The position numbers were made by a program, and so were the translations under genes. Positions 200 to 57,253 of a stretch of 64,000 bases of DNA are shown here, piece by piece. Each line of letters opens with the position of its first letter. Within the stretch, counting starts at the first letter, position 1. The notes under the pieces were generated by a model, which was not told the origin of the DNA, did no database searches, and saw only the letters and a list, made by a program, of their open reading frames with translations. This stretch comes from Patescibacteria group bacterium (GTDB taxonomy: Bacteria; Patescibacteriota; Patescibacteriia; Magasanikbacterales; GWA2-37-8), in contig JBAZNA010000001.1 of the NCBI GenBank assembly GCA_041649475.1, forward strand, positions 878,594 through 942,593. Reading direction: 5' to 3'.

Positions 200-238
200 A
201 AAAAAAAAGGTGCCCGACGCGAACGTTCGCGCCGGGCC
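200..238 (-). terminator. Intrinsic terminator of the GC-rich unit (minus strand): GGGCCCGGCGCGAACGUUCGCGUCGGGCACC followed by a U9 run
   Basis: Reverse complement of 209-238 gives a perfect 11-13 bp GC stem around an ACGU loop, immediately followed by T9 (A9 on the plus strand at 200-208). Confidence 0.6.
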
Positions 239-752
239 CGGACTTCTGCGAGTGGGCGGACTTGTCGCGTGCGATGGTGGTCGCGAGCGAACACGTCACT
301 CCCTGCTTCTCTCGTCTCTCCCGGTACCCCCGGGATCTTGTAACCCCCTCGCGCCGAAGCGCGAGGGGATGACGTGCCGATCAGCTTGTGGCCGTCGGCT
401 GACCCAGCTCCTCGCAGATGGAGATGGGCTATGTTGTGTCTGAACGGGTTCCGCCGTCCGCGGGTTGATGCTGCGTTCGCTGTCAGATCAGTTCCGTCGG
501 CGTAGTTGCCGGCGACGAACTTCTGACAGTGCAACTTGGGGGCCTGGCCGGCGCCGCTTGCTGTGCTGGCGCTAGCCGCCGAGGTCCCCGGCGCCGAGGT
601 GCGCGGCGACGTCGTCGTTGCCGCCCGCGCTGTCGTCGCCGATGTTGCCGATGCCCGATGTCATGGTCGTGAAGCCGTGGCTCACCCGTACTCCTCTCGT
701 CGCATGGCGTCCCTCCTGGTCGTCGTCGCATAGAAACGCAGACAACTTCGTT
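200..752 (-). other. GC-rich (~62% GC) promoter-to-terminator unit; candidate structured RNA and/or small-peptide gene (AGGAGG-N6-ATG 7-codon ORF, then a 30-codon Gly/Asp-rich ORF)
   Basis: Consensus promoter at 759-787 (minus) and terminator at 200-238 (minus) bracket about 550 nt with no convincing long ORF. The minus-strand RNA contains a C(UUCG)G-capped 9 bp stem (344-371), the long helix ctgtcaga...tctgacag (480-530) and CAUCGG direct repeats. Confidence 0.45.
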
Positions 753-758
753 GGGCAC

Positions 759-787
759 ATAATAGCACAAAATGATGAGTTTGTCAA
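759..787 (-). promoter_or_regulatory. Sigma70-like promoter TTGACA-17-TATTAT driving the GC-rich unit leftward
   Basis: Reverse complement of 782-787 is TTGACA; reverse complement of 759-764 is TATTAT; spacer is exactly 17 bp. A near-identical 30-mer occurs at 57221-57253. Confidence 0.6.
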
Positions 788-855
788 TAGTTTGGGCCTA
801 TAAAATACAAAAAAATCGCTTATTTTAGCGATTTTTTTATCAGATACTAATAATT

Positions 856-2148
856 TTATGGTTTCAACCTGCCAATAGTCCTCGGAAACGGGATACATTC
901 ACGAATATGTTCCACGCCCGTTATCCAGCGCACCGTGCGCTCCAAACCAATACCAAACCCCGAATGCGGCACACTGCCATATTTTCGCAAATCAGTATAC
1001 CACTGGTAGTCCGCTTCACTTAAGCCCTCGTCTTTGATGCGTTCATACAACAATTCATGATCATCCTCACGCTGGCTGCCGCCGATTAATTCTCCGGCTC
1101 CCTCAATTGCGATCAAATCGTCATTTAAAACCAGTTCCTGATTACTCGGATCGCGCTTCATGTAAAACGGTTTAATGCTTTTCGGCCATTTTTCTATAAA
1201 GACCGGCACCTCCGAATCTTTTGTCAGTAACACCTCATCATCATTGCCTAAATCCTCGCCGTATTTAATATCCGAACCAAGCTCATTTAATTTTTTAATT
1301 GCTTCATCATAAGTCAAACGCGTAAACGGCTGATCGGCCTTCTGTAGCGGTTCAACGTTTCTTTCCAAAATTTCCAATTCTTCTTTACAATTATTTAAAC
1401 AATAACGCACTATGTATCTAACCAATCCTTCCTGAATTTTTAGATTTTCTTCATGCTCCACAAAAGCCGCTTCCGCGTCCATCATCCAAAATTCGGTTAA
1501 ATGCCGTTTAGTTTTGCTCTTCTCGGCTCTAAAAACCGGTCCAAAATCATAACATCGTCCCACCGAAGCAATTGCCGCCTCAATATATAGCTGACCGGAT
1601 TGAGATAAGTAGGCAGTGCCCAAATCAAAATACGGAACCGGAAACAAGGTGGTCGTGCCTTCGCAGGCATTGGGCGTAAAAATTGGCGAGTCAACTTTTA
1701 TAAAATTTTCCTTATGCAGATACTCGTTGATGGCCGTAATAATCGCATCGCGCACGCGCAAAATCGCCCACTGCCTTTTGCTCCTAAGCCACAGATGGCG
1801 AAGATCCATCAAAAAATCAGGACCGTGCTCTTTTTTGCTAATCGGATAATCTTGCGCGTGCTGAATAATTTCCAAATTTTTTATCTGCAATTCATAAACA
1901 TTTTCTTTTTTGGGATGCTTGGTCACTGTGCCGGTAATTATCACCGATGATTCCTGCGACACATCCTCCACCCGAGTCCATGTCTCCTCGCTTAACTGGG
2001 CTTTGACAGCCACGGCCTGTATCCAGCCCGTACCATCCCGCAGTTCCAAGAACCCAATCGGCCCGGATGACCGCTTGTTATACAGCCAGCCCTTTATTGT
2101 AACCTCCTGCCCTACGTATTCGGATATATTCTTGATGAATGTGGACAT
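856..2148 (-). CDS. asnS: Asparaginyl-tRNA synthetase
   Basis: 430 aa; class II motifs [21 protein letters not shown] and [21 protein letters not shown] (PHSG is typical of AsnRS rather than AspRS). Confidence 0.85.
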
Positions 2149-2152
2149 ATTT

Positions 2153-2722
2153 TTAAATTATTCCTAAACTTTTGGCATTTTTAATAAAATCCGGAAGCGG
2201 CCTGCCGTTATGCACCTGCACAAATTTATCTATTATTACAAACAACTGCTCCGCCGGCAGCTTGACAAACCTCTCCAACTCCTCCCCATAGCCAAACAAA
2301 CTCCACAATTTCAAAAGATAATTATTGATTATATTTAAAGGGCTTTTTACCGGCTCGGTATTCAAAAAATGTAAAAAATTTAAAAGTAAATTAAAAATTT
2401 TTTCATCTTTCTCTTCGGTTAAGGTAAACTCATCCAAAACGCGCACAGCATAACCGGCCAAAAAACTTTTGGTTAAGTCGCGCCTAATGTTACCATACAT
2501 TTCCAGCGCTTGTACTTTTGTTAAATGATCAAATTCCTTGCCTTCGGCCACTTCAATTTCCGAGAACGTCGGCCTCTCCAGCCCGGCCGCATTTTTACTG
2601 GTCATTTTTTTAATTCCCTTGGCCAAAAGATTCAATTTGCCGCGCTCAAACGTATAAAGAGAAACCACCTGATCAAATTCTTTTAAATCACGTCTTCCTA
2701 AAGCAATGGCCAGCATAATCAT
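2153..2722 (-). CDS. recO: DNA repair protein RecO-like (short form)
   Basis: 189 aa; N-terminal OB-fold-like pattern ([21 protein letters not shown]) in the typical position between the YqgF/Era region genes. Confidence 0.6.
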
Positions 2723-3099: not shown

Positions 3100-3100
3100 A

Positions 3101-3910: not shown

Positions 3911-3911
3911 A

Positions 3912-4499: not shown

Positions 4500-4576
4500 G
4501 TTGTATTGTGTTTTAATTAAAAAAAGGCTTTTTAAGCCCCTTTAGTTTATCATGTGTCTATATTTATTTCAATATG

Positions 4577-18806: not shown

Positions 18807-18814
18807 ATAAAAAA

Positions 18815-19165
18815 AGCCCGGGAGAGAAGAGAGTCGAGGCGAGGAGGCAAATCCATAGTCCGCAAGCGAGGCAGGGGGCCACCTCACATCACAGACGTTT
18901 GCACCTCTTCACTCTTCTTCCCGGGCCGAAGACAGGACAGCCTAGCCGGTAAATTCGCTCTTGGCTCAAGTTACGAACCACGCAAATCCGCACAATAGTG
19001 CACACCCGGTTCCAGCTGAAACCTCCCGCGACTTCAAATCCTACAGGAGTTTCTGCCCGCGAACGGAACAGATCAGGGAACCTTGGGTGAACCGACAAGG
19101 GCATCACGGAGGCTGAATCCACCTTACTACTAAAAACAACCCCTGTCTAGGGGGTTGTTTTTTTG
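18815..19165 (+). ncRNA. Candidate structured ncRNA (~350 nt, GC-rich); identity unresolved
   Basis: ~58% GC island with no plausible ORF; ends in a canonical terminator; 18818-18834 pairs with 18911-18926; shares the CCGCGAACGGAACA core with the R2 repeat. Confidence 0.4.
19128..19165 (+). terminator. Intrinsic terminator AAAAACAACCCCUGUCUAGGGGGUUGUUUUUUU
   Basis: 7 bp GC-rich stem (CAACCCC/GGGGUUG), 7 nt loop, then a U7 run. Confidence 0.6.
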
Positions 19166-22342: not shown

Positions 22343-22420
22343 GGGCTGGGCTGTGTAAAAAAACAGCCCGCACCGAATGGTCGATGCGAGCGAAACAAAG
22401 AGCACTTGTGGGCATGCATG

Positions 22421-22870
22421 CTACTTGCCCTCCCCGAACCGACGCTGGGGCTCGGTCATCTTCCTGGCCTTGCGCCTGGCACATTTGCGGATGCCCGACA
22501 TCAAGTCGCCATAGGCGGCGGCGAACCTCTTGCTGCTGCGCAGGCCGTCTATGATCTTGGCCAGGATCTCGGTTTCCAGTGAGTACTCCTCCCGGTCTAG
22601 GAAAGCGGCCGAATAGGTCTCCACCAACACATCGTGAAAGTCGTCACTGGCATCAGAACCGACCAAGAAGGAACGCAATAGGCTGGTGAACCAGTTGTCG
22701 TAGAACTTCACGAGCAGGATCGGATTACCGCCCAGCCGGTTGTCCACCAGATACTGCCTGGTCTGCCGGAGGGTCATAATCCCCTCCAGGTACATCAGAT
22801 TGATCTCTGACCCTTCCTTGGTGAAAAGGAGGTTGAGAGGTTGGACTCCTTCTCCTGTCTCCTTGGCCAT
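22421..22870 (-). CDS. Hypothetical 149 aa protein encoded by a GC-rich cassette
   Basis: ~58% GC; own promoter (22899-22927), then GGAGG-N6-ATG; no recognisable domain. Confidence 0.5.
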   Translation of the reverse strand: MAKETGEGVQPLNLLFTKEGSEINLMYLEGIMTLRQTRQYLVDNRLGGNPILLVKFYDNWFTSLLRSFLVGSDASDDFHDVLVETYSAAFLDREEYSLETEILAKIIDGLRSSKRFAAAYGDLMSGIRKCARRKARKMTEPQRRFGEGK

Positions 22871-22898
22871 GACAACCCTCCTAAATTGCCAACATGAT

Positions 22899-22927
22899 TA
22901 TTTACCATTATTTTGGGTATTTGTCAA
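22899..22927 (-). promoter_or_regulatory. Cassette promoter TTGACA-17-TAAATA
   Basis: Reverse complement of 22922-22927 is TTGACA; reverse complement of 22899-22904 is TAAATA; spacer is 17 bp. Confidence 0.55.
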
Positions 22928-28094: not shown

Positions 28095-28123
28095 TTGACA
28101 CGCAACTCGCTATTGCCTACAAT
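28095..28123 (+). promoter_or_regulatory. Cassette promoter TTGACA-17-TACAAT
   Basis: 28095-28100 is TTGACA; 28118-28123 is TACAAT; spacer exactly 17 bp; ~55 nt upstream of the GC-rich prs-like ATG. Confidence 0.6.
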
Positions 28124-28180
28124 GCAGACAAAGTTCGCACCTTTAACAACGCATTTCGCGAAAGCGGAAAGGATATACGG

Positions 28181-29392: not shown

Positions 29393-29439
29393 CCCTCCGT
29401 AGAAGCCGGCCCAACGGCCATGCTTCTCCCACCCCTCCA

Positions 29440-29470
29440 CAACCCGCACCCGCGGGTTGTCTTCATTTTG
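29440..29470 (+). terminator. Intrinsic terminator CAACCCGC-ACCC-GCGGGUUG plus a U-rich tail
   Basis: 8 bp perfect stem immediately after the prs-like stop. Confidence 0.55.
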
Positions 29471-29520: not shown

Positions 29521-29620
29521 CATATATACTCACTCATTTCGCTTATATAAACATATAAGCTCATTCGCTCAAAAATGAAATTATAAATAATTTCATTTTG
29601 TTCACTCATTTCGCTTATGA
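29521..29620 (+). repeat. Copy (a) of the A'-B-hairpin-A leader module; motif A ends in the ATG of the downstream ORF
   Basis: actcactcatttcgcttat (29528-29546), catataagctcattcgctc, 12 bp perfect inverted repeat 29572-29583 / 29588-29599, then ttcactcatttcgcttATG. Confidence 0.6.
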
Positions 29621-30078
29621 AAAGAGGAAAACCAACCCCAGAGGAAATGGCTGAAATAGCTTTTGACCGGACCGCACCCAGCCGTGCAAAGACAGGAGAC
29701 ATAACTTTGCCCAGATCAATTGCTGAACTGAGGTCAAAAATGTCTGTTCCCAAATCCGTATCCGGATCCGAATCCGAAGAAGTCCCTACCATATCCGCAA
29801 TAGCGGCTTGGGATGACTTCAGATTAGAACTGGAAAAAACCGGAAAACTGGAATCAGCAATTAAAACAATGCAAGATTACATAAACGAGATTAGAAATGA
29901 AATTGATAAAAGAAATCTGCTAATGCATTCAGACGCAATGAAACAACCCGGGAGTATGGAATACAACGGGGTAATAAGAAAAATACAAAAATTAACCAAC
30001 CCATCTATCGCCAAAAAATTTTTAAAAATTTATAAAAGAATAATAGAACAAAGAATTCATGAGTTAGAGAGCAGATAA
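29617..30078 (+). CDS. Hypothetical protein (first gene of the trpS operon)
   Basis: 153 aa; its start codon is embedded in motif A; trpS follows 14 nt later. Confidence 0.45.
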   Translation: MKRGKPTPEEMAEIAFDRTAPSRAKTGDITLPRSIAELRSKMSVPKSVSGSESEEVPTISAIAAWDDFRLELEKTGKLESAIKTMQDYINEIRNEIDKRNLLMHSDAMKQPGSMEYNGVIRKIQKLTNPSIAKKFLKIYKRIIEQRIHELESR

Positions 30079-32527: not shown

Positions 32528-33757
32528 TTATTTCTTCAAAACATCTTTGAGCTTAACCATTTCAGCGTCTTTTTGGTTGCGCATTTTAATCTCCACTGAT
32601 TGCTGTGCTAAAGTTTTTTTAGAGACAACCAATCGGGTTGGAATACCAATCAAATCCGCGTCAGCCAATTTCACTCCGGCCGTGGCTTCGCGATCATCAT
32701 AAAGCACTTCCACGCCGTTTTTTATCAGATCTTTATATAATTTTTCAGCCGCTTCTAAAATTTCTTTATCCTGACCCAATGAAACCAAATGGTACTGAAA
32801 CGGCGCGACCGATTCCGGCCAGATAATTCCATCTTTATCATTAAAAACTTCCACCAAAGTGCCCATTATCCTTGACGGACCCATTCCGTAACAGCCCATC
32901 TCCACCGGCTTCTCTTTGCCTTTGTCATCCGTGTACTTAAAACTAAAGGCGCCGGAATATTTTGTGCCCAACTTAAAAATATTTCCCACTTCAATGCCTT
33001 TTTTCTCCAACAAATCAGAATTGCCGCATTCCGGACAGGCATTTTGGTCATTTATAATTTCTTTATTTACCGCCACTTTGCATTTCTCACAAAAATAAAT
33101 AGTGTCCTCGCCGATTTCAGATAAGGTTTGAAATTCATGAGAATATTTGGAAAACATTCCGCCGGAAGCGTAGGTCTTAATGGTGATATTACCTATTCCC
33201 AATCTTTCATAGACCTTAAAATATGCCTCTATCACTTTTTTGTAATATTCATCCAAGTCCTCGGTTGAGGTATGGAAAGAATACATGTCTTTCATGTTGA
33301 ATTCGCGGCCGCGGAGCAGTCCGGATTTGGCGCGCGGTTCATTTCTGAATTTATTTTGAATCTGATAAACCGACACCGGCAGATCGCGGTAGGAAAAAGT
33401 ATATTTTTGCACCAGGGGCGTCACCACTTCTTCGTGGGTTGGGTTTAAAACCAATTTCGCGCCGCCCTCGCCTTCAGTACGGAAAAAAACATCTATGGTA
33501 TTTCGGCCGGTGGTGACATAACTTTCTTCAGAGGTTAAAACCGGCATCAAGACCTCATTTCCGCCCACCGCATTCATTTCCTCGCGGATGATATTTTGAA
33601 TTTTGTTAAGCACGCGAAGCCCTAGTGGCAAATAATTGTAAACTCCGGCCATTTGTTTGGAAATAAATCCACCTTGACTTAACAGTTTGGCGTTTATGCT
33701 ACCCTCATCAGCCGGCTGGCTCTTGCTGGTTTTCCCGAAAAGATTTGAATATTTCAT
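32528..33757 (-). CDS. proS: Prolyl-tRNA synthetase (short form lacking the editing insertion)
   Basis: 409 aa; class II motif 2 FRNEPRAKSGLLRGREFNMKDMYSF; C-terminal anticodon-binding domain. Confidence 0.8.
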   Translation of the reverse strand: MKYSNLFGKTSKSQPADEGSINAKLLSQGGFISKQMAGVYNYLPLGLRVLNKIQNIIREEMNAVGGNEVLMPVLTSEESYVTTGRNTIDVFFRTEGEGGAKLVLNPTHEEVVTPLVQKYTFSYRDLPVSVYQIQNKFRNEPRAKSGLLRGREFNMKDMYSFHTSTEDLDEYYKKVIEAYFKVYERLGIGNITIKTYASGGMFSKYSHEFQTLSEIGEDTIYFCEKCKVAVNKEIINDQNACPECGNSDLLEKKGIEVGNIFKLGTKYSGAFSFKYTDDKGKEKPVEMGCYGMGPSRIMGTLVEVFNDKDGIIWPESVAPFQYHLVSLGQDKEILEAAEKLYKDLIKNGVEVLYDDREATAGVKLADADLIGIPTRLVVSKKTLAQQSVEIKMRNQKDAEMVKLKDVLKK

Positions 33758-33830
33758 AAGCGAAATGAATGAGTGAAATGCGTTGTTTACAACGGCATTT
33801 CCGAATGAATGAGCTTATATGATAATATAG
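33750..33830 (-). repeat. Copy (b) of the B-hairpin-A leader module, immediately upstream of the proS ATG
   Basis: Reverse complement gives ...catataagctcattcattcgg / gaaatgccgttg..caacgcatttc / actcattcatttcgcttATG (the proS start). Confidence 0.55.
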
Positions 33831-33941: not shown

Positions 33942-34013
33942 TCTGGGGTAGTTTAATGGTAAAACGCCACGCTGTTAACGTGGTTAGTGTAGGTTCGATT
34001 CCTACCCCCAGAG
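33942..34013 (+). tRNA. tRNA-Asn (anticodon GTT)
   Basis: Folded by hand: acceptor UCUGGGG/CCCCAGA, D-stem GUUU/AAAC, anticodon stem CCACG/CGUGG with loop CUGUUAA, T-arm GUAGG-UUCGAUU-CCUAC, discriminator G; followed by a GGCCC...GGGUC-U6 terminator. Confidence 0.85.
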
Positions 34014-34215
34014 CTATGAAAAAAGGCCCAAAGTTATTCGGGTCTTTTTTCATAATTTTGCGGGAGGAAGCGAACAAAGGGGTGGCGGGGAAAGTATTTC
34101 CCCGCATTGCTGGGGGTGACCGAAGCCGCCAACCACTGTTAGAGTAGAGGCGGCCGAGGGCAAGAGGGGCGGAAGCCCCTATTGAGGAGCGCGCGAGCGA
34201 AGCGAGCGGCGCGAC

Positions 34216-34238
34216 CGATTCCTACCCTACGGAGCTAT
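34216..34238 (+). repeat. Partial duplicate of the tRNA-Asn 3' end (att-like remnant) inside a short GC-rich spacer
   Basis: cgattcctaccctacggagctat compared with the tRNA 3' end cgattcctacccccagagctat (12/12 core identity). Confidence 0.45.
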
Positions 34239-34404
34239 TCGGAACGTGGGGCCATTTCGGCCAAAATTCGGTATCTAGCCGGCTCATTACGCGATGGCTA
34301 GCCAAATATTGATTAAATCGCAAAAAATGTTAAAAAATGAACTTGACACCAATTAATGTATATACTATAATCTAAATATAACAATAATTTGTTAAAAATA
34401 TAAT

Positions 34405-35640
34405 ATGATAACAAAATTAAGGGTCAGCAACTATTATTCCATTGGAGAAGAAATAAAGCTAGACTTCTTAAAAGGTGGTGCAAAAAAGGAGGTGGGATAT
34501 TTTCAGTATAAAAAAAGTGAAAAAATATCACTAATAAACGGGTTTTTTGGTGCGAATGCGAGTGGCAAGAGTAGTATCCTGGGATCTATGGTCAGCCTAA
34601 TTAAAATGATGTACACCATCTCTTCACCACAAAATATATCACTACAGAGCGTTGCCTCTGGTGAGGTTTTGTTGTGCCACCCTAATCTACACAAAAATTT
34701 TAAAGATAAACCTACAAAATTAGGAATTGATTTTTTGTTTGGTAATAATTACTACACTTACGATTTGGAAATTCAAGGTGGAAACAATATAACTGAAGAA
34801 AATTTGTACGTTACCACTCTTGATTTAGCCGCTGCACATCCAAAAAAAATATTCACGAGATCCGGGTCTATTATTAGCTTCGGGCCGGAATACAAAGACT
34901 ACGAAGCTTACTCAACTAATATAAATATTCAAAAATATCAAACTTTTATTTCCCATTTAATAAACATTGGGGCAAAGGCTATGGTTGATTTTGTGAATTA
35001 TAAGAATTCTTTTTTTCTAAAGGTGGATAGGATGGATTTACAGCTCCCTTCTTACGGTAAGATCATAATACGAGCTTTCCAACTCAATTCTCTTGCAGAG
35101 GACAAGAAAAAGGAATTCTTAAAAATTACACAAGACATAATGAGTTGTTTTGATGATTCCATCAATGGTTTAGAAGTTGATACTAAAAATAATACTGTTT
35201 CTATCAAAGTGGGACACAAAAATTTCTTGAATAGCATTGACATTACGGATGAATCGGCCGGCACCAGAGAACTGTTTTGTTATATATATGACATATTAGA
35301 TGCCTTTAAAAAAGGCGGGGTTATTATTTATGACGAAACGAGCAAATACTACCACCCAGATATAGAGCTTGAGTTATTCTCTATTTTCAAAAATGAAGAA
35401 TTTAACACAAAAAATGCACAACTATTCTTCGCTTCACATAATCACGGGACTTTTGACTTACTTGAACTAGACCAGGCCTACATTGTGGAAAAAACAGATT
35501 CCAGCTCTACCATCAACAGGTTATCAGAAGTTGAAGATCTTAAAAAGCGGGACAACCTAAAAAAGAAATATCGCCTCGGCATGCTTGGTGGAGTTCCAGA
35601 CACTACTGCCTTTGACTTTAGGTTGAAACAACTACTATGA
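34405..35640 (+). CDS. ABC-type (AAA_15/AAA_21-like) ATPase, candidate anti-phage system component
   Basis: Walker A GANASGKSS; Walker B IIIYDE; H-loop ASHNHG; ~33% GC island next to tRNA-Asn. Confidence 0.7.
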   Translation: MITKLRVSNYYSIGEEIKLDFLKGGAKKEVGYFQYKKSEKISLINGFFGANASGKSSILGSMVSLIKMMYTISSPQNISLQSVASGEVLLCHPNLHKNFKDKPTKLGIDFLFGNNYYTYDLEIQGGNNITEENLYVTTLDLAAAHPKKIFTRSGSIISFGPEYKDYEAYSTNINIQKYQTFISHLINIGAKAMVDFVNYKNSFFLKVDRMDLQLPSYGKIIIRAFQLNSLAEDKKKEFLKITQDIMSCFDDSINGLEVDTKNNTVSIKVGHKNFLNSIDITDESAGTRELFCYIYDILDAFKKGGVIIYDETSKYYHPDIELELFSIFKNEEFNTKNAQLFFASHNHGTFDLLELDQAYIVEKTDSSSTINRLSEVEDLKKRDNLKKKYRLGMLGGVPDTTAFDFRLKQLL

Positions 35641-36158
35641 AATTACCGCCTGTAATAATTCCTTTCTGCGAGGGTGAAGCGGAAGTGCTTCTTTTTGAAT
35701 TTCTAAAACTTAATTATTCAAATAAAACAATACGGTTTCAAAAACCGAAAAATCTTAAGGGTTTTGAAAATTTAGCTGGATTTAAAAAAAAATATTATAA
35801 GGCCATAAAGGCCCAAGGCCTCAAACCTAAAAAAGATTTTATCAAGGTTCGATTTTTGTTTATATTTGACAATGATTTAGAAGACTCGAAAGAAATAAAA
35901 GAGTTTTTGGAACTAAAAGGACATTTGGTACAGCAATGTGAGCCAAACGTAGAGGGGTTGATACTAGGTATTATAGATCAAAGTCAGGGAGATAATTTAA
36001 AAACAGAGGATTACAGAAAAAAATGTAAAAATAACTTTAAAAAACAATTTGGTTGTGAATCTCATCGTTTAAAAGAGAGAGAATTAAAAAAAATATTTGA
36101 GGACGAAAAACATTTTAAGAATAATCTGCCCATCTTATACAATTTATTTAAAAAATGA
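35637..36158 (+). CDS. Small TOPRIM-like (DUF4276/RloB-like) protein, translationally coupled to the ATPase
   Basis: ATGA overlap with the upstream gene; N-terminal IIPFCEGEAE (TOPRIM Glu) and FLFIFDNDLED (DxD). Confidence 0.55.
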   Translation: MKLPPVIIPFCEGEAEVLLFEFLKLNYSNKTIRFQKPKNLKGFENLAGFKKKYYKAIKAQGLKPKKDFIKVRFLFIFDNDLEDSKEIKEFLELKGHLVQQCEPNVEGLILGIIDQSQGDNLKTEDYRKKCKNNFKKQFGCESHRLKERELKKIFEDEKHFKNNLPILYNLFKK

Positions 36159-36216
36159 CCCACCGAAAAATGTTTATCAAAAAGGTGTGCCCCCCACATC
36201 TACCACCCCGAGCATT

Positions 36217-37194
36217 ATGGATACTCTGTTTCCACCAAACCTTATTTCTGGGAGTGTAAAAACCCAAAAACAACTTGATGCTGCTTTAGCAAAACATTCA
36301 GATCTTTCAATATCCTTTGTCACTATAGCTGTTAATAGACCTGAGACACGAAAGTGGTATGAACACTACTGGCAAAAAATACATAGGTACCTCGATAAAG
36401 ATTTTGCTCAAAAGTTCCGACTTGAAAGCGAACATGAATCTCGTGGATGGGAATTTCACATTGCCTCGGTCTTACTTGATCATGGAGTGAATCTGAAAGA
36501 AAAAACTTGGAATACAGGACCAGATTTTTGTATTCAAACTCCTGAAGGCAGGAACATATGGATTGAAGCAATTTGTTGTACCTCGGGCGAAGTTGACCCT
36601 GTTCCACCAAAACCAGATCTGACAGAGGGTAAAGTTTACATAGGTGGAGGCGGCATAGAGGATTTAAATCGCCCACGCGTATTGCGAATTCTTAATGCTG
36701 TTGGTACTAAATATGAAAAGTTCAAACGGTACGTTGCAGATGGAAAAAGCGGCGTATCAGAAAATGACTGCTTAATTATTGCGATAAGTGGCGCGAATAT
36801 TGAATTCGCGTCCGATTCAGAGGTACTTTTGAAGCGCGCTGTATTTGGGGTTGGTCTTGATACATATTACAAAGATCCGAAAACGAATAAATTGGTTGGG
36901 CCTTTTTATAAACCATCACCAAATATCATTAAGAAGGCAAAGATTGGGGATAAAATCATGCCGGCAAATTTTATGGAGATGGAAGGATTTTCAAACATCA
37001 ATGCCGTGCTCTATTGTGGACATCACGCATATAATTGCGAACGGAATGGTCATAAAGTTGGTGATGATTTTCTCTTTGCTTATCACGTTAATCCAACCAA
37101 CTCACTCCCTGTCAATTTATTTAATTTTGGTCTAGAAATTAGAAAAAACCCTACAGATGCCAGCATTACAACTTTTAATTTAAATACCAATTAA
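36217..37194 (+). CDS. Hypothetical protein (possible third component of the island)
   Basis: Start placed at the internal Met (MDTLFPP), after the previous gene's stop and in the same frame as the track ORF (starts 36097, overlapping that gene); weak PD...E motif (GPDFCIQ...IWIEAIC). Confidence 0.45.
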   Translation: MDTLFPPNLISGSVKTQKQLDAALAKHSDLSISFVTIAVNRPETRKWYEHYWQKIHRYLDKDFAQKFRLESEHESRGWEFHIASVLLDHGVNLKEKTWNTGPDFCIQTPEGRNIWIEAICCTSGEVDPVPPKPDLTEGKVYIGGGGIEDLNRPRVLRILNAVGTKYEKFKRYVADGKSGVSENDCLIIAISGANIEFASDSEVLLKRAVFGVGLDTYYKDPKTNKLVGPFYKPSPNIIKKAKIGDKIMPANFMEMEGFSNINAVLYCGHHAYNCERNGHKVGDDFLFAYHVNPTNSLPVNLFNFGLEIRKNPTDASITTFNLNTN

Positions 37195-37355: not shown

Positions 37356-37384
37356 TTGACACAAAAATATCATTATTGTATTCT
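37356..37384 (+). promoter_or_regulatory. Cassette promoter TTGACA-17-TATTCT, then AGGAGG
   Basis: 37356-37361 is TTGACA; 37379-37384 is TATTCT; AGGAGG at 37392-37397; ATG at 37406. Confidence 0.6.
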
Positions 37385-37405
37385 CCCTAAAAGGAGGCGC
37401 TAATC

Positions 37406-37615
37406 ATGCCGATCTTTGGCAGTGACGAAGACAGATACACAACTTGGAAATGCCCTTCGTGCCACAACTACTTCGGCAGAAGCGGCAAGTGTTCCGTCTG
37501 CGGCGACACGCTAGTGCAGAGTGCCATCTCCGACGCGGCGGTCAACCGCATCATCTACGCTAGGGACATCGAACGGCCCCGGCAACAAGACCAGAAAAAG
37601 CGCGAAGGAGGATAA
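37406..37615 (+). CDS. Small zinc-ribbon protein (GC-rich cassette)
   Basis: 69 aa; CPSC...17...CSVC; its stop overlaps the RBS of the next ORF. Confidence 0.5.
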   Translation: MPIFGSDEDRYTTWKCPSCHNYFGRSGKCSVCGDTLVQSAISDAAVNRIIYARDIERPRQQDQKKREGG

Positions 37616-37621
37616 GGCGCC

Positions 37622-37909
37622 ATGGCAAAAAAAGTCATAAATGGCCAGGTCATAGACGACCTTGGGATAGATCTCGACAGCTTACCCCTCCCAGCGCAAC
37701 TGCTGGAGGAGCGGCGGCGCAAGGGTCATCCCATCGAGATCCCAAGCTTGGGCGTCATCATCATGCCCGATGGAACCGTGGTGGACAAGGGCCTGCCCCC
37801 GGACGACTACGCTAGGGCCAGCCCGTCCGAAAAGACCGCCACGCTCAAGCGGTACGAGCCAGAGCAGGGTTTCTTCGCCCGCCTGTGGCGGCGGATCTTT
37901 CACAAATGA
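37622..37909 (+). CDS. Hypothetical 95 aa protein (GC-rich cassette)
   Basis: GAAGGAGG RBS then ATG; ~60% GC; followed immediately by repeat R1. Confidence 0.5.
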   Translation: MAKKVINGQVIDDLGIDLDSLPLPAQLLEERRRKGHPIEIPSLGVIIMPDGTVVDKGLPPDDYARASPSEKTATLKRYEPEQGFFARLWRRIFHK

Positions 37910-37915
37910 GTTCGT

Positions 37916-38000
37916 TCATTCCCCAAGGAGGGTGCTCCGCGAACAGCAACAACAGTTCGCACCCCTCAAAAGCAACTCACCAGATGGGTTGTTTTTGTTT
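37916..38000 (+). repeat. R1: ~87 bp 3' module (GCGAAC...GTTCGC hairpin plus T-rich tail), 84/87 identical to R2
   Basis: tcattccccaaggagggtgctccgcgaacagcaacaacagttcgcacccctcaaaagcaactcaccagatgggttgtttttgttt. Confidence 0.6.
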
Positions 38001-38066
38001 AGGTTGGGGTGTCTTTATTTTCCTATATAGCGTATGCTACAGATATTAAGACCTAACACTGAATTT

Positions 38067-38519: not shown

Positions 38520-38626
38520 GTGCTTTCAACTGGATCCTTCTTGAACTTAAATAAGAGCTTCATCGAACATTGACGGCTCATCTTTTTTCATATTTAATAT
38601 ACATACCCAAATGAAGGAGGACAGGC

Positions 38627-39442
38627 ATGCGCATTATCTTGTTGAGTTTCGTGCTCGGGATCTGTGTATCAAGTGTGCCCCACCATGGGATCGCCCAAAG
38701 AGATTCGTCAAGACCATCCCTGGCCACACTGGACAAGCAGATCTTCACCCAGAACACGGTGATTGAGGCCGATCGGATCGAGATCCAGAGTGGAGCCAGG
38801 ATCCGCGTCCGCAACGGAGCGGCCTTGAAGCTCAAGGCAGACACCATCGTGATCTTTGGCCCCGCCTTCATCGACGGCCGCGGCGAACCCGGCCACCAAG
38901 GCGCTCCCGGGCAATCGAAGAACGACACCTGGCGGAGCAGCGGTGGCGGCGGGTGGTATAGCTGCGATATCGCCCATCGCGACTGGGTGGCTTCCGGAAG
39001 TGAGGTTGACCGCGGCGGGGATGGTGGACCGGGCGGTCCCGGAGGACCTGGGGCGATCATCATCCTGGAGTACAGGGACCTACAGGGTCCCGCCAACCTG
39101 CAAACCGAATTCCGAGGCGGACCGGGCGGTCCCGGAGGACCTGGTGGAACCGGCAGAATCCTCTGCTGCGGTTGCCACAACAACGAGTGCAAGCGGGGTC
39201 CTTCGGGTAGGTCAGGGCCAAACGGCCAGCCAGGTCCCAATGGACGGGAAGTTCGTCGAAGTCTGACGAGAACCCAATCCATTGATTCCACCAGCATCAC
39301 GCCGCCGCCGGAGCGCATGGAGTCGTGCTACCCCAACCCCTGTCCGTCCGGAATCTGCTGCGAGAACCAAGGCAGAATCTGGTGCTGTTCCGAAGGACAG
39401 TACTGCACCTATTCGCCTGATGGATGCAAGTACCGCAAGTAG
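38627..39442 (+). CDS. Secreted Gly/Pro-rich (GPGGPGGPG), Cys-rich protein (GC-rich cassette)
   Basis: AAGGAGG-N6-ATG; signal peptide MRIILLSFVLGICVSS; two GGPGGPGGPG tracts; 15 Cys in the last 120 aa (CCGCHNNEC, CCENQGRIWCC). Confidence 0.55.
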   Translation: MRIILLSFVLGICVSSVPHHGIAQRDSSRPSLATLDKQIFTQNTVIEADRIEIQSGARIRVRNGAALKLKADTIVIFGPAFIDGRGEPGHQGAPGQSKNDTWRSSGGGGWYSCDIAHRDWVASGSEVDRGGDGGPGGPGGPGAIIILEYRDLQGPANLQTEFRGGPGGPGGPGGTGRILCCGCHNNECKRGPSGRSGPNGQPGPNGREVRRSLTRTQSIDSTSITPPPERMESCYPNPCPSGICCENQGRIWCCSEGQYCTYSPDGCKYRK

Positions 39443-39560
39443 GCCGTCGCTCTTTTCTCCTCCGCCAGTCTGGCCCTTCCAGCTGGCTTCTTTTTTTATC
39501 AAAAATAATTGTATTCCAAATAAAGTCATGTTAAACTGACTGAAAGAGGAGGATGGGACA

Positions 39561-39938
39561 ATGAAAAAATACAAGCACTTCTCGGGTGCAGTGCTGATGA
39601 GAGACGAACTCAAAAAGAAGTTCGGCACGCCGAAGTGGCTCGCCGGCATCGTTGTGATGCACACCGTCCGGTATGGCTACCTCGTGGAAGTACGCGTCTT
39701 CGGCAAGGCCAAGTTCCCCAAGCTACCCAGGTTGCCTCTCTACCTCCGGGATGCCACCAGGGTCCGCTTCCGGCGGGTGAAGAAAACACCGGAAGCGCGA
39801 CTGAAGAGGGCAATCGCCCGGTTTGAAGATCCGGCTTCGCACGTCGCCGACAATGTTGCTCTCTCAGCAACCCTACACGAAGCCGCCGAAGCCCACTCCA
39901 AAATCCTGGGACCACATGGCCGCCTTCGACATTGCTAA
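39561..39938 (+). CDS. Hypothetical basic 125 aa protein (GC-rich cassette)
   Basis: AGAGGAGG RBS; ~58% GC; followed immediately by repeat R2. Confidence 0.5.
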   Translation: MKKYKHFSGAVLMRDELKKKFGTPKWLAGIVVMHTVRYGYLVEVRVFGKAKFPKLPRLPLYLRDATRVRFRRVKKTPEARLKRAIARFEDPASHVADNVALSATLHEAAEAHSKILGPHGRLRHC

Positions 39939-39940
39939 AC

Positions 39941-40027
39941 TCATTCCCCAAGGAGGGTGCTCCGCGAACGGCAACAAAAGTTCGCACCCCTCAAAAGCAA
40001 CTCACCCGATGGGTTGTTTTTGTTTAC
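39941..40027 (+). repeat. R2: second copy of the 87 bp 3' module
   Basis: Differs from R1 at three positions; starts 3 nt after the stop, as R1 does (7 nt after its stop). Confidence 0.6.
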
Positions 40028-40083
40028 AAATGTTGAATTTTGAGGTAAAATTGAATATGAAAAAATAAACGCCTGCAGAAATT

Positions 40084-42242: not shown

Positions 42243-42298
42243 AAACTATCCCCGGCATAGTTGACTTAATTTTTCTGCAATGATAAATTATAAAGGTA

Positions 42299-42378
42299 TA
42301 TATAGATATAAACTCATTCGTTCGGAAAAGTTAAAGAAAGCTTTAACTTTTCTCTCACTCATTTCGATTATGAATAAA
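42299..42378 (+). repeat. Copy (c) of the B-hairpin-A leader module; motif A ends in the ATG of a 28-codon ORF
   Basis: agatataaactcattcgttcgg / aaaagttaaag-aaa-gctttaactttt / ctcactcatttcgattATG. Confidence 0.55.
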
Positions 42379-42456
42379 GCAAACAACAACCACTGGTATT
42401 TTATTAAGAATCTGTTCGTCTACGCGAAAAGCGGCGGTGGTTTGTTGTGTGTATAA
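42370..42456 (+). CDS. Possible 28 aa small ORF (MNKANNNHWYFIKNLFVYAKSGGGLLCV) launched from motif A
   Basis: Its start codon sits in the same position relative to motif A as those of proS and the trpS-operon leader gene; it ends ~20 nt before the cassette hairpin. Confidence 0.25.
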   Translation: MNKANNNHWYFIKNLFVYAKSGGGLLCV

Positions 42457-42478
42457 ATGTTCATGAAAACACAGAAAT

Positions 42479-42501
42479 CCCGCCTCGCAGGCGGGGTTTT
42501 T
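42479..42501 (+). terminator. Hairpin CCCGCCUCGCAGGCGGGG plus U5 (insulator in front of the Cys-rich cassette)
   Basis: 7 bp GC stem with a 4 nt loop and a T-run. Confidence 0.5.
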
Positions 42502-42539
42502 AGTTAATATCGCTCTTTCCACATACATGGAGGCCAACC

Positions 42540-43085
42540 ATGAAGTCAGCGGCGGCGGGAATCAAAGTGCGCATGGATGACGGGCACCCGGAATGGGTGG
42601 ATCCCGAAGTCAGCCACACTCAAGAGTTTACGCTCATACCGCCTGCTCTTGAACAGGCGGAGACAAGCCCCAAAACCATCATCCTGTACTGTGAATACTG
42701 TGACAACCTGACTCGGCACCGTGAATTCGATCAGAAGGAGCCGAAGTACAAACCGGTTCGCTGCGGATTCAAGCTGGTGTGGGCACGGGCAACCTGTCTA
42801 AAGTGTGGTTCAATCTACCCGGAGATCTACACTCCGAAGATCGTCCATCTGTACTGCCCCAAGTGCGATCCCGCGGGCGAACGGAAGGTGAAGTATTTCA
42901 AGGTTGAGCCCGGTTATCCCCATCCCCCGCGCACGGAAAGCAATAACTACATCCTGCTTGAACCGAACGCGGTGTGTATGGAGTGCGGATCAGTTGATTA
43001 CAGTTTCACCCAGCTCAAACTGCCGGATGAAAACGTCGTCAGCTTGACCGACCAGATTGACGCCGCCACAGTGCGCAAAATCTGA
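42540..43085 (+). CDS. Cys-rich protein with four CxxC pairs (two predicted zinc ribbons), GC-rich cassette
   Basis: 181 aa; GGAGG-N7-ATG; CEYC, CLKC, CPKC and CMEC motifs. Confidence 0.55.
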   Translation: MKSAAAGIKVRMDDGHPEWVDPEVSHTQEFTLIPPALEQAETSPKTIILYCEYCDNLTRHREFDQKEPKYKPVRCGFKLVWARATCLKCGSIYPEIYTPKIVHLYCPKCDPAGERKVKYFKVEPGYPHPPRTESNNYILLEPNAVCMECGSVDYSFTQLKLPDENVVSLTDQIDAATVRKI

Positions 43086-43124
43086 TGTCTTCAGACAATG
43101 CGCCGAACAGGCCGACAGGCCACA

Positions 43125-43155
43125 GAACACCTACGGGGGAAGGTGTTCTTTTTTT
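43125..43155 (+). terminator. Intrinsic terminator GAACACCU-acggggga-AGGUGUUC plus U7
   Basis: 8 bp perfect stem and T7. Confidence 0.6.
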
Positions 43156-51829: not shown

Positions 51830-51843
51830 AACTCAATTTACGC

Positions 51844-53595: not shown

Positions 53596-53599
53596 AGTG

Positions 53600-54559: not shown

Positions 54560-54592
54560 AGAAGCAAGTTAGATAATTACTCTATTATTCTA

Positions 54593-55558: not shown

Positions 55559-55630
55559 ATGTAAAATTTTAATGACTTATTAGCCAATCATAGGATAAAA
55601 AAGCCAATATGTCAACCTTGAAAAGGAATT

Positions 55631-55664
55631 AAAAAAGGGCATACGGTGTGAACACCGGATGCCC
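55631..55664 (-). terminator. Intrinsic terminator GGGCAUCCGGUGUUCACACCGUAUGCCC plus U6
   Basis: 6 + 6 bp interrupted stem, then T6 on the minus strand. Confidence 0.6.
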
Positions 55665-56415
55665 AATGGGACCCGAGGATACTCTGGACCTGGGGGTGGT
55701 CGTAAATCCCCGTTTCCCGTGGGGTTCTGCTTCCCCGTGGCTCACCACTACGCAGGTGACTCGACCCATCTGCCTTTCGGCCACCAGGGCGGGTGTAGAT
55801 CTTGGGAGGGCGGCACGGGCGCTTGCATGTCATCAGTCGGGCTGTTAAGCCCTATGTGTGGAACAGCAGCTTCACCTGACGCTCCTTTCTTTTCCTCTGC
55901 GGGTGTTCGACCCCCGGATAGAGGTCGAATACTCGATAAAGGTGGGAAACGAGAGAGTGAACCCCCGCGTTTCCCGTACTGCACTGCTTCCATGCTTTGG
56001 CGCGACCCTGCGAGGTTACGGCCCTTGAGTTGAGAGAATAGTACTTCCCCGAAGGCTTTCCTATCCCGTACAACCTGGGCCTGCATAGTACCCCGAAGTG
56101 ACTTTGCCCTGCTTGGGCGTTGGCTAGGGGTGTGGTCGCCACTTAATTCCACACCTTGCGTTTAACTGCGCACGACACCTCCATCCTTGGGTGGTGTCAC
56201 CCTTGCTTGGCGCGGGAGCTTTGTCGTAATGCTCCGCAGCGCGGGTTTACGGTTTACGTGCGCCTAATGGACGCACGCACGGCGGGATCTACTTCTGTGA
56301 CCCCGAGTTAGAGAAACGGGCCATAACGCATGTGGTCCACTCCTCCACCGAGCCGCCGGCACATAGTCCGAGGGCCTTTCACAGGCCGCTAAATATTAAC
56401 GGACTACGAAAGATA
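55665..56415 (-). ncRNA. Candidate large structured ncRNA (~750 nt, ~60% GC) with its own promoter and terminator
   Basis: No credible ORF in either orientation; multiple GNRA/UUCG-capped helices (GGCCGAAAGGC, GCCUUCGGGG, CACUUCGGGG, GGGAAACG...CGUUUCCC). Confidence 0.45.
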
Positions 56416-56422
56416 ATGGATT

Positions 56423-56451
56423 AGTATAGCAGAAATTGTTCGGTTTGTCAA
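56423..56451 (-). promoter_or_regulatory. Promoter TTGACA-17-TATACT for the GC-rich ncRNA candidate
   Basis: Reverse complement of 56446-56451 is TTGACA; reverse complement of 56423-56428 is TATACT; located in a short AT-rich spacer. Confidence 0.55.
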
Positions 56452-56702
56452 CCTCTCGACCACTTTGGTCAAGAGGCAATTACTTACCACTTCGCTTTAA
56501 TGTCCCCACATAAGTGAGAGTCCAAAGATCAAAATGGAAAGTAATTGGGAGCCGAAGTGTTTGAGCACTGCGGCTGTGCCTCCAGCAATGTTCGCTCGCG
56601 CGAACGATTCGCATGGCCAGCCGCGTGGCACACTAGGGGTGCGGCTGTTAGGGCTGGTGGTCTGCCTCATACCTGATGCGCACGGAACGATCTCCGTTGA
56701 CA

Positions 56703-56918
56703 TCACAGGTCCAGGAGCAAACCCCCTTGTAGACACCCTCTGTCTTCTTGACCTTGGAGAGGTCGCTGATCTGTCGGCCGTCCTTTGACGTTGGAAGCCG
56801 CCTCCGCGAGAACTGCGAGGATGACGATGGCGATGATGACCCAGAAGGTGAACTTGTAGATCCCCTTCTCGTTCAGGTACCAGTCCATGTCGGATATCTT
56901 GTTCCTGATCTTACCCAT
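56703..56918 (-). CDS. Small single-transmembrane protein (71 aa) in a GC-rich unit
   Basis: AAGGAGAGG-N3-ATG; MGKIRNKISDMDWYLNEKGIYKFTFWVIIAIVILAVLAEAAS... Confidence 0.4.
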   Translation of the reverse strand: MGKIRNKISDMDWYLNEKGIYKFTFWVIIAIVILAVLAEAASNVKGRPTDQRPLQGQEDRGCLQGGLLLDL

Positions 56919-57224
56919 GTTCCTCTCCTTATCCTCGAACCACCCACACAAACCAACGCGCATGCGCCAGTCCGGGGCGGCTTCTTTCTCTAAGTTGAAA
57001 TGAACACAGAATGTTTCCATCCTGGACCGAGTGAACGACCCTATAACGTAGATTATTCACTTCGTTCAAAATGACAACGCCCATATTAACACAAAATCCC
57101 TCGTTGAGAGAGATTCTTGTTTGTCGCCCTTGTCAGGGCTAAAATTAGAGTATATTTTACTTGCGCCTAGCTGCACCTCTCTCAAATGCCACTATGCGCC
57201 TATTTTTTGATACTTAAACAAGCA

Positions 57225-57253
57225 AGTATAGCACAAATGAGAGATTTTGTCAA
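57225..57253 (-). promoter_or_regulatory. Promoter TTGACA-17-TATACT (30-mer paralogous to 759-787)
   Basis: Reverse complement of 57248-57253 is TTGACA; reverse complement of 57225-57230 is TATACT; immediately downstream of the ileS stop. Confidence 0.55.

Follow-up and report, generated by a model that had tools for sequence, protein, structure and literature searches.

How do short pieces of GC-rich DNA come to lie singly between the core genes of an AT-rich bacterial genome? The question is raised by a stretch of 64,000 nucleotides (nt), here called the window, from a Patescibacteria group bacterium of the candidate phyla radiation (CPR; GTDB order Magasanikbacterales, GWA2-37-8; assembly GCA_041649475.1, contig JBAZNA010000001.1, positions 878,594 to 942,593 of the forward strand), whose proteins carry the NCBI locus tags WC526_045xx to 046xx. 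The core genes of the window are a ribosomal-protein cluster, EF-Tu, EF-G, rpsG, rpsL, several aminoacyl-tRNA synthetases and one tRNA-Asn. Its GC content is 43.7% as a whole and 42.0% without nine segments that a first-pass annotation had singled out as GC-rich, self-contained expression cassettes. The nearest species-level GTDB relatives are Candidatus Magasanikbacteria, in which the NIF3-like protein is 62–75% identical. We consider it on balance probable that the segments represent about ten unrelated accessory units, acquired horizontally at different times from GC-richer donors that use Shine–Dalgarno (SD) initiation.

The compositional contrast holds for all nine of the segments claimed. 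When each was compared with every stretch of the same length avoiding the claimed segments, all nine were outliers, with GC contents of 0.544–0.653 against a background mean of 0.42; eight lay above every background stretch of their length, with z-scores of 3.6–6.8. The weakest outlier, 18815–19165, has a GC content of 0.550, a value reached by 0.07% of the background stretches. The units to which the segments belong are listed below, with lengths of proteins in amino acids (aa). Promoters, terminators and SD sequences are, here and throughout, sequence motif matches only, the promoters being scored out of 12 against TTGACA-17-TATNNT in the first 60 kb of the window; ORF stands for open reading frame, uORF for an upstream ORF and GC3 for the GC content of third codon positions.

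203–787, minus strand: unit I1; promoter at 787–759 (11/12, with TG), AGGAGG at 717–712
705–682, minus strand: I1, uORF of 7 aa, overlapping (GTGA) the start of the 37-aa ORF
685–572, minus strand: I1, Gly/Asp-rich ORF of 37 aa; GTG start, nearly all codons ending in G or C
237–212, minus strand: I1, terminator of 11 pairs followed by T9
18807–19165, minus strand: unit I0; GC-rich and non-coding, between a 605-aa gene and fusA; GC 0.55
22357–22927, minus strand: unit I2; weak promoter at 22927–22899, AGGAGG SD, terminator at 22391–22366
22870–22421, minus strand: I2, orphan ORF of 149 aa; GC3 0.79
28095–29470, plus strand: unit I3; promoter at 28095–28123, 51-nt leader, terminator at 29439–29460
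28181–29392, plus strand: I3, divergent gene resembling phosphoribosyl pyrophosphate (PRPP) synthetase; match to TIGR01251 below the cut-off
34017–34227, plus strand: unit I4; about 200 nt, GC-rich and non-coding, directly past tRNA-Asn; GC 0.64
37356–38003, plus strand: unit I5; promoter at 37356–37384, two SD-led ORFs, then repeat R1
37406–37615, plus strand: I5, zinc-ribbon-like protein of 69 aa; GC3 0.70, SD AAGGAGG
37622–37909, plus strand: I5, protein of 95 aa; GC3 0.75, SD AAGGAGG
38570–40028, plus strand: unit I6; weak promoter at 38570–38598, two ORFs, then repeat R2
38627–39442, plus strand: I6, secreted protein of 271 aa with beta-helix, Gly-rich region and Cys-rich tail
39561–39938, plus strand: I6, basic protein of 125 aa
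42261–43156, plus strand: unit I7; weak promoter at 42261–42289, SD GGAGG, terminator at 43124–43149
42540–43085, plus strand: I7, protein of 181 aa with several CxxC motifs
55630–56451, minus strand: unit I8a; promoter at 56451–56423, predicted GC-rich transcript of about 770–790 nt, no credible ORF
56452–57253, minus strand: unit I8b; promoter at 57253–57225 (11/12, with TG) directly past the stop codon of the isoleucyl-tRNA synthetase (IleRS), 300-nt leader
56918–56703, minus strand: I8b, SD-led membrane protein of 71 aa; GC3 0.71, NNC fraction 0.94

The GC-richness of these islands begins at the SD or leader and continues through the 3' untranslated region (UTR), the promoters themselves sitting in AT-rich DNA. 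Since GC-rich 3' UTRs and non-coding units are involved, the shift is not a codon effect alone.

Such a contrast could also arise if GC-rich reads of another organism had been mis-joined into the contig, and chimeric segments were the artefact of which the first-pass annotation had warned. Nothing beyond the contrast itself speaks for this. Island 2 and both its AT-rich flanks are identical in an independent Logan assembly of another run (SRR8542065; L001, the L numbers here and below denoting related loci that were fetched for comparison), the islands with the PRPP-synthetase-like (Prs-like) and 181-aa genes are joined to their flanks in the same way in other samples and other species, and island boundaries coincide with promoters, SD sequences and terminators. 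With islands present both in an independent assembly and in syntenic relatives, we rejected a chimeric or contaminated assembly as hardly credible and take the islands to be real.

Eight island ORFs show the phase pattern of true genes from a GC-rich setting. GC3 is 0.67–0.79 in every island gene against 0.41–0.48 in native genes, while the GC content of second positions in the islands is about 0.4. In every island gene the two-fold codon preferences are inverted relative to the native genes: the island choices are TTC, TAC, AAC, CAC, GAC, ATC, AAG and CTC/CTG, the native ones TTT, TAT, AAT, CAT, GAT, ATT, AAA and TTA/TTG. The share of two-fold pyrimidine codons ending in C is 0.70–1.0 in island genes and 0.26–0.30 in native genes. 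The value for EF-Tu is only 0.42, so that ordinary expression-linked bias does not explain the island codons; we rejected it, as neither EF-Tu nor the ribosomal proteins use the island dialect. The proteins themselves are also shifted in the direction that a GC-rich origin predicts, with more Arg (7.5% in island proteins, 4.1% in native ones), less Lys (6.0% and 9.3%) and less Asn (2.7% and 4.8%); Pro and Cys are more frequent in them as well, and Ile is less so. In both GC3 and the inverted two-fold preferences, the island genes have the composition by which horizontally acquired genes are recognised. The native genes show an unusual split of their own in codon preference, with four-fold sites fairly GC-rich (0.61) and two-fold and three-fold sites at 0.34 and 0.23.

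Island and native genes differ as well in how their start codons are preceded. Scored as match length to AAGGAGG at curated starts, an SD of at least 5 nt is found in all eight island protein genes tested (at least 6 nt in six of them), whereas among 68 native genes 58 fall short of even 4 matching nt and just two attain 5, bearing out the proposal that SD sequences are strong in the cassettes and mostly missing elsewhere. A cruder automated survey of the window and 19 related loci found at least 5 nt in 10 of 389 ordinary ORFs and in 6 of 18 ORFs with high GC3 (Fisher p = 2e-5). This contrast between strong and nearly absent is a pattern of the sequence and may reflect a functional difference. 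Loss of the anti-SD has been reported in some Parcubacteria, mainly those that lack uL1, and the presence of uL1 tends to accompany retention of the anti-SD (PMC9297842); the uL1 gene is present in this genome.

In their packaging the units are ordinary for this genome, and their promoters are of its normal type. Promoters scoring 11/12 precede I1, I3, I8a and I8b, and that of I5 scores 10/12; of those claimed at the outset these five stand at 10/12 or better, and the other two fall short, the promoter of I2 combining a perfect −35 with a poor −10 (TAAATA) and that of I6 being weak. I7 has no promoter beside its SD; a 244-nt AT-rich leader intervenes, with a 28-aa uORF and a hairpin and U-run at 42479–42502. 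Six of the ten best promoters in the scan (at least 11/12) are native, those of EF-Tu, tRNA-Asn, the AbiLi-like gene described below, rpsL, rplA and NIF3, so the suggestion that cassette promoters match the host's own type is right for rpsL and for other native units. A terminator had been claimed for each unit. Strong intrinsic terminators close I1, I2, I3, I5, I6 and I7; that of I5 is the hairpin at 37967–37997, of which R2 supplies a copy to I6. A hairpin with U6 marks the end of I8a, and no canonical terminator was found for I8b, which lies ahead of I8a. Thus I1, I3, I5 and I8a have their own promoter (at least 10/12) and their own terminator, as have I2 and I6 with weak promoters. I2 is placed between the terminator of the upstream gene and the rpsL promoter (22342–22314), and the "upstream hairpin or insulator" elements ascribed to the cassettes are in fact the terminators of preceding genes. 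With these corrections, the description of the islands as discrete, foreign-looking and autonomously packaged expression units is upheld, and they differ from the native genes in their use of SD sequences.

The units had further been read as one dispersed family of mobilised modules with shared signatures, which would be comparable to integron cassettes or to modules borne by miniature inverted-repeat transposable elements (MITEs). One line of evidence for such a family is the repeat pair R1/R2 at 37916–38001 and 39941–40026, which is real: the copies are 86 nt long and 97% identical, and fold as a GCGAAC-loop-GTTCGC hairpin with a terminator stem of 13 bp behind it, all three differences lying in predicted loops. 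Hairpins of the GCGAAC-loop-GTTCGC type lie at or near the 3' ends of I1, I5, I6 and I8b. Over 6,962 island bases the hexamers GCGAAC/GTTCGC were counted 16 times, where dinucleotide shuffles gave 4.9 ± 2.3, and they rank joint first among 492 composition-matched hexamers. The signature is therefore enriched about 3-fold, as proposed, although the effect is modest, since palindromes and R1/R2 are counted twice, leaving about ten independent sites, and the motif was picked after the sequence had been seen.

Against this, blastn (word size 7) and nhmmer searches with each island over the window and 1 Mb of related loci returned the R1/R2 pair only, and no similarity to the GC-rich islands of the relatives. 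The pair has two copies only, separated by 2 kb, and local duplication of a 3' end suffices to account for it. The proposed 15-nt core, CCGCGAACGG(A/C)AACA, occurs once. No recombinase, terminal repeats or target duplications were seen, no integrase was found and, by inspection, no attC-type core (GTTRRRY), and the units carry their own promoters, unlike integron cassettes. None of the GC-rich genes of the relatives (small Cys protein, Kelch-like, UPRT-like and others) was found in the window. Apart from a duplicated 3' hairpin/terminator module, then, payloads and DNA are unrelated and the islands are not one mobile family; that model is largely refuted within the window, and we regard it as very improbable.

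Seven of the units are protein-coding, their products being PRPP-synthetase-like, beta-helix adhesin-like, zinc-ribbon or Cys-rich, a membrane protein, a 37-aa peptide and an orphan. The Prs-like protein of I3 matches TIGR01251 with 82.9 bits (E=1.9e-23), below the curated cut-off of 113 bits, its matches to Pfam Pribosyltran_N and Pribosyl_synth are sub-threshold, and it matches the PHROG family phrog_619 (PRPP synthetase) with E=2e-13. It appears to be a divergent member of a Prs-like family and may have the corresponding enzymatic activity. The family has at least 184 members at E <= 0.001 and is widespread in the CPR; among labelled records, the named members belong to Magasanikbacteria and Yanofskybacteria and, at a similar identity of about 50%, to Myxococcales and Gemmatimonadetes. 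The 271-aa protein of I6 has a signal-peptide-like N-terminus, and 143 representative homologues were counted for its Gly-rich domain (residues 30–210), in some of which a patatin or metallophosphoesterase domain is attached. Every homologue named to an organism among the 20 best comes from Myxococcales, Polyangiaceae or "Deltaproteobacteria" (41–51% identity). For the 149-aa protein of I2, the sole match among 5.8 billion sequences was itself, and the 181-aa protein of I7 has a single homologue. The 69-aa, 95-aa, 125-aa and 71-aa proteins matched no family in Pfam, NCBIfam, PHROG or PADLOC; overall, PHROG, NCBIfam and PADLOC returned nothing for seven of the eight payloads. The GC-rich tail of I8b, about 230 nt long, holds a GTTCGC...GCGAAC hairpin.

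Three or four units are non-coding and probably make structured RNAs, which may be functional. Codon periodicity is lacking in four segments (55635–56420, 205–500, 34060–34300 and 18815–19130). The first, in I8a, contains many hairpins capped by UUCG or GNRA; its closing hairpin and U6 lie at about 55650–55630, ahead of the NIF3 promoter at 55615–55587, and against dinucleotide shuffles, which were used for all fold z-scores, it folds with z = −4.3 on the minus strand and −2.5 on the plus strand, making I8a a candidate large structured RNA. In I1 (GC 0.65), periodicity is confined to about 500–755 and is followed by a GC-rich non-coding tail of about 330 nt (571–238, minus strand); the whole unit, including the 205–500 tail, gives z = −4.35 on the minus strand. 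I0 ends on the minus strand in a hairpin of about 120 nt with U7, has a bidirectional terminator at 19132–19162, and has fold z-scores of −5.7 for the minus strand and −3.3 for the plus strand. No promoter was found for I0, whose strand and boundaries are putative; lying downstream of fusA, it could be an RNA derived from the 3' UTR or an independent structured RNA. The fold of I4 (34060–34205) is indistinguishable from shuffles (z = −1.6).

Searches of the window with Rfam 15 (4,227 families), at gathering thresholds and, for I8a and I1, at a permissive E (<10), returned tRNA-Asn only, and Rfam found nothing in eight related loci. Neither I8a nor I1 is present in any of the 104 fetched loci, and I8a has no homologue in the 1 Mb of related sequence or in the phage collection; scans of GTDB and metagenomes with the neighbouring NIF3-like protein found no relative above 77% identity. 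No homologues of the non-coding units were found. The units may be structured RNAs or decaying imported DNA, and we regard the ORF-free unit of about 790 nt and the segment of about 330 nt downstream of fusA as candidate new structured RNAs.

The age of the islands can be judged from their relatives. The Prs-like gene is found in L045 with 79% protein identity and the same neighbours (TGT, SPOUT methyltransferase, and the tryptophanyl- and histidyl-tRNA synthetases, TrpRS and HisRS); there it has 61.7% GC (GC3 0.78) between flanks of about 45%, the promoter and leader are alignable, and the 51-nt leader is conserved. In each of the seven CPR contexts examined, which span at least three different neighbourhoods, the GC content of the gene exceeds that of its flanks, by 5–18 percentage points. 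The 181-aa gene is found in L102 with 69% identity, between the same 254/261-aa gene and rplA, at 58% GC between flanks of 27–44%; its neighbours there are 88–95% identical, so that the 181-aa protein evolves fast, and its leader is visibly better conserved than the coding sequence. These two genes thus sit at the same loci and are equally GC-rich in relatives, which disposes of a recent arrival of all the units. Island 8 tells of the opposite situation: the spacer between IleRS and NIF3 is 1,717 nt in the window and 91–215 nt in L006, L007, L009, L014 and L018, and the island therefore lies between genes that are adjacent in relatives.

The acquired origin proposed at the outset is thus plausible, provided that neither a single family nor uniformly recent arrival is implied. 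The shifts in codons, amino acids and UTRs, taken together with the patchy distribution and the orphan payloads, favour transfer. Horizontal transfer and genomic islands are documented in Patescibacteria, at up to 13% of genome length (PMC12455944). We propose that each unit would have been brought in by its own transfer, from donors that were GC-richer and initiated at SD sequences, at different times, and would have settled either in the space between two core genes or in the variable stretch beside tRNA-Asn. It would there be transcribed from a host-type sigma-70 promoter in the AT-rich gap and stopped by its own hairpin and U-run. A strong SD may be needed because a GC-rich, structured 5' coding region could not use the SD-independent initiation of the AT-rich native genes. 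Amelioration of a once GC-richer gene predicts a net change from GC to AT, and this is seen in the Prs-like gene, in which polarised synonymous changes number 12 GC-to-AT against 5 AT-to-GC for the window and L045, and 28 against 2 for L046/L047. As to the source, nothing points to Actinobacteria, the donor suggested by the first-pass annotation; the named beta-helix homologues are those from Myxococcales, Polyangiaceae and Deltaproteobacteria, and the Prs-like relatives are from the CPR, Myxococcales and Gemmatimonadetes. A horizontal origin, with a Myxococcota-like donor for one payload, is what we infer.

Several observations weigh against acquisition. The Prs-like and 181-aa genes are old residents that are still strongly GC-rich in syntenic relatives, the former exceeding its flanks in every one of the seven CPR contexts, and between the Prs-like genes of the window and L043 the four-fold sites have an identity of 0.30, which is that expected at random. 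Four relatives keep a GC-rich gene for a small Cys protein, with IleRS four-fold identities of 0.41–0.51 (0.25 at random). To account for such persistence, one needs ancestors that were very GC-rich and ameliorated slowly, or else some force that keeps GC high. The parsimony used for polarisation overcounts GC-to-AT changes in GC-rich, nearly saturated data. No donor sequence above 41–53% identity was found, no integrase, transposase or flanking repeats were seen save for the tRNA scar described below and R1/R2, and searches of phage and viral collections came back empty. Among the relatives at hand, synonymous sites have diverged without being fully saturated, so that the GC excess may yet be decaying from a very GC-rich ancestor. 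On a rough estimate of about one synonymous substitution per site between clades, about half of the initial GC3 excess would remain; decay from an ancestral GC3 near 0.95 then still fits.

The same persistence speaks for an alternative in which the islands are not foreign. They would be an intrinsic minority class of GC-rich or structured, SD-dependent transcripts in a genome whose core genes are AT-rich and SD-independent, two initiation regimes existing side by side and GC being kept high by selection on the stability or structure of the mRNA or on regulated initiation. GC and SD do persist at orthologous loci (Prs-like in L045, 181-aa in L102, small Cys protein in L003, L006, L010 and L011), an SD of at least 5 nt is nearly missing from ordinary ORFs over the 20 loci surveyed, the promoters are of the host's own type, and the GC-richness extends over UTRs and over non-coding units that fold unusually well. 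Set against this are payloads that are unrelated and mostly lineage-specific or orphan, an amino-acid usage shifted along with the codons, polarised changes that amount to net GC loss and not equilibrium, and named homologues of one payload in GC-rich Myxococcota; a literature search found no mechanism or precedent. We therefore favour horizontal acquisition over a class maintained by selection, which we regard as possible but rather unlikely. A bolder form of the same idea, doubtful in our judgement, is a two-tier system of expression in Magasanikbacteria and maybe other CPR bacteria, with an SD-free AT-rich core and persistent GC-rich, SD-led monocistronic units whose GC selection would uphold. 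Among these units would be the Prs-like enzyme, in a salvage role, secreted or Cys-rich proteins that evolve fast, and structured RNAs of large size such as I8a with its ~790 nt. If this were true, there would be a distinct regime of translation or stability, for instance through control of anti-SD availability or resistance to an AU-specific RNase, acting during host attachment or dormancy.

Horizontal acquisition, the reading that we prefer, leaves the vehicle to be considered, and here the tRNA-Asn locus is relevant. The tRNA gene lies at 33942–34014, and 12 nt of its 3' end (CGATTCCTACCC, 33996–34007) recur exactly at 34216–34227. These are the only two occurrences of the 12-mer in the window, and they bracket the roughly 200 nt of I4 in what looks like an att-type scar of site-specific integration. 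The region beyond it (34343–37194) is very AT-rich (28–33% GC), has a promoter with a 12/12 consensus match, and codes for an AAA ATPase resembling AbiLi (PADLOC E=4e-55), a protein of 173 aa and one resembling PD-T7-5 (E=2e-7); it looks like an anti-phage defence islet beside a tRNA gene. The whole of 34.3–43.9 kb appears to be a mosaic variable region, with the defence genes, RadC, DUF7670, a leucine-rich-repeat protein and pilin genes of a type IV secretion system (T4SS). We count the att-like copy of the tRNA-Asn 3' end beside the AbiLi-like defence gene as a possible sign of transfer.

The scar also enters into another explanation, which makes the units morons or the remains of decayed prophages or other integrative elements; CPR phages or integrative elements would have delivered them, and the flanking element genes would since have been lost. 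The moron-like architecture, the atypical composition and the insertion between genes adjacent in relatives are all in keeping with this, as are the scar beside a defence gene, RadC and T4SS pilin genes and the presence of PRPP synthetase among phage families (the phrog_619 match). In a Foldseek search of the PDB, the best match of the 271-aa model was a phage tail-fibre adhesin, which at E=0.3 is not significant. Opposed to this, genes for phage structural proteins, an integrase or phage replication are missing from the window; I1 and I8 had no blastn match among 50,697 phage records; three IMG/VR protein scans (271-aa, 181-aa and Prs-like) found no relatives; and PHROG matches are absent for all payloads but one. 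The units are moreover scattered among ribosomal-protein and tRNA-synthetase genes and not clustered. An origin from phages or integrative elements seems to us decidedly unlikely.

Several further observations were made at the leaders of these genes. From the uORF onwards, the leader of the 181-aa gene looks, when read by eye, nearly unchanged between the window (42296–42539) and L102 (880–1054), and the coding sequences are only 69% identical; the 28-aa uORF (MNKANNNHWYFIKNLFVYAKSGGGLLCV) is followed by a hairpin and U-run right before the SD, a layout that resembles an attenuator. A separate leader element of about 70–90 nt, consisting of CTCATTCG, a hairpin and TCACTCATTTCGCTTATGAA, is found at 29530–29621, 33753–33829 (minus strand) and 42297–42374, ending on a start codon each time, that of the 153-aa gene which precedes TrpRS, that of HisRS and that of the uORF in the 181-aa unit. 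Its hairpin arms vary in sequence yet stay complementary. L045 and L102 lack it at the corresponding positions, and a single similar copy is present in L002. We take it for a possible small element of 5' UTRs, either mobile or regulatory.

The relatives have GC-rich units of their own. L008 (2395–3498) has a secreted Kelch-like protein of 367 aa with 64% GC in the IleRS–NIF3 gap, and L005 (11737–12558, minus strand) a protein of 273 aa like uracil phosphoribosyltransferase (UPRT), with 63% GC in a locus of 37.5% GC, both names being read from the sequence. The small Cys protein (CxxC...HxxxCP...W..GY; 56–59% GC), which the window lacks, is encoded upstream of IleRS in four relatives (L003 5450–5900, L006 6480–6990, L010 5700–6200 and L011 5650–6150); its gene has a conserved 5' leader of about 90 nt, a GGAGG SD and a conserved 3' hairpin. 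The IleRS–NIF3 spacer of L010 (9640–9960), L011 (9530–9800) and L038 (9720–9990) holds a promoter-to-terminator unit of about 230 nt with no obvious ORF. Both ends of this unit show conservation (GCTCATAT... at one, ...CGCCTATAAAACAGCTTTAA with a hairpin at the other), and we regard it as a candidate small RNA that shares the hot spot of island 8. Finally, SufB of Magasanikbacteria GW2011_GWA2 (L041/L042, 12743–15301) contains an intein with Hint and LAGLIDADG domains (Pfam).

The genomes of CPR bacteria are tiny, and a life on other cells is assumed for these bacteria; the genes that they import, and the way in which these are expressed, inform us about adaptation to the host. The window indicates that imported-looking genes can sit singly among the most conserved genes of translation, with a host-type promoter, foreign codons and a strong SD. 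The payloads include plausible agents of host interaction or salvage, such as the beta-helix adhesin-like protein, the fast-evolving Cys-rich proteins and the PRPP-synthetase-like enzyme. Two features stand out, the clean dichotomy in SD use and codons and the ORF-free unit of about 790 nt. The persistence of GC in two conserved units raises the question of whether amelioration is unusually slow or whether GC and SD are actively maintained.

The units may be compared with several known systems. Morons are reportedly autonomous extra genes of lambdoid and other phages, described in work by Hendrix and Juhala. Like them, the units comprise one gene or two, read from a sigma-70 promoter of their own and closed by a factor-independent terminator; they are of deviant composition and inserted between genes that are adjacent in relatives. 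Unlike them, they are chromosomal, in a CPR bacterium, among ribosomal-protein and tRNA-synthetase genes with no phage genes nearby; two are conserved across genus-level relatives, and several are non-coding. With integron cassettes and arrays of attC sites lacking an integrase (CALIN), the islands share small same-strand units, two of which have a common imperfect-palindrome 3' element (R1/R2). They differ in that each unit has its own promoter and that the 3' element occurs twice only, contains an intrinsic terminator and, by inspection, lacks the R''/R' core of attC; there is no IntI, and Pfam scans of the neighbouring genes found no integrase domain.

A closer likeness is to genomic islets undergoing amelioration, a concept for horizontally acquired genes that is said to go back to Lawrence and Ochman. 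Atypical GC and codons, patchy distribution, orphan payloads, an att-like repeat adjacent to a tRNA gene and, in one gene, a net change from GC to AT are common to both. The units are nevertheless mostly single genes of less than 1.5 kb, dispersed singly between core genes with no integrase or insertion sequence, and some are strongly GC-rich despite substantial synonymous divergence. GC-rich structured non-coding RNAs in AT-rich genomes are the basis on which GC-content screens for such RNAs work. I8a, I0 and the tail of I1 resemble the RNAs found in this way, being GC-rich and ORF-free with fold z-scores of −4.3 to −5.7, and both I8a and I1 are bounded by a promoter and a terminator. I4, likewise GC-rich and ORF-free, has a fold that does not stand out from shuffles. 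All differ from known RNAs of these screens in matching no Rfam family and in that no homologues were found. Lastly, there are SD-poor lineages, such as the Bacteroidetes, in which a minority of genes is SD-led. The genome studied here is like them in having native genes that are almost SD-free and a small distinct SD-led set, and unlike them in that the SD-led set is made up of compositionally foreign genes. The units are, in sum, new examples of a known thing: compositionally foreign accessory genes, together with candidate RNAs, in a CPR genome.

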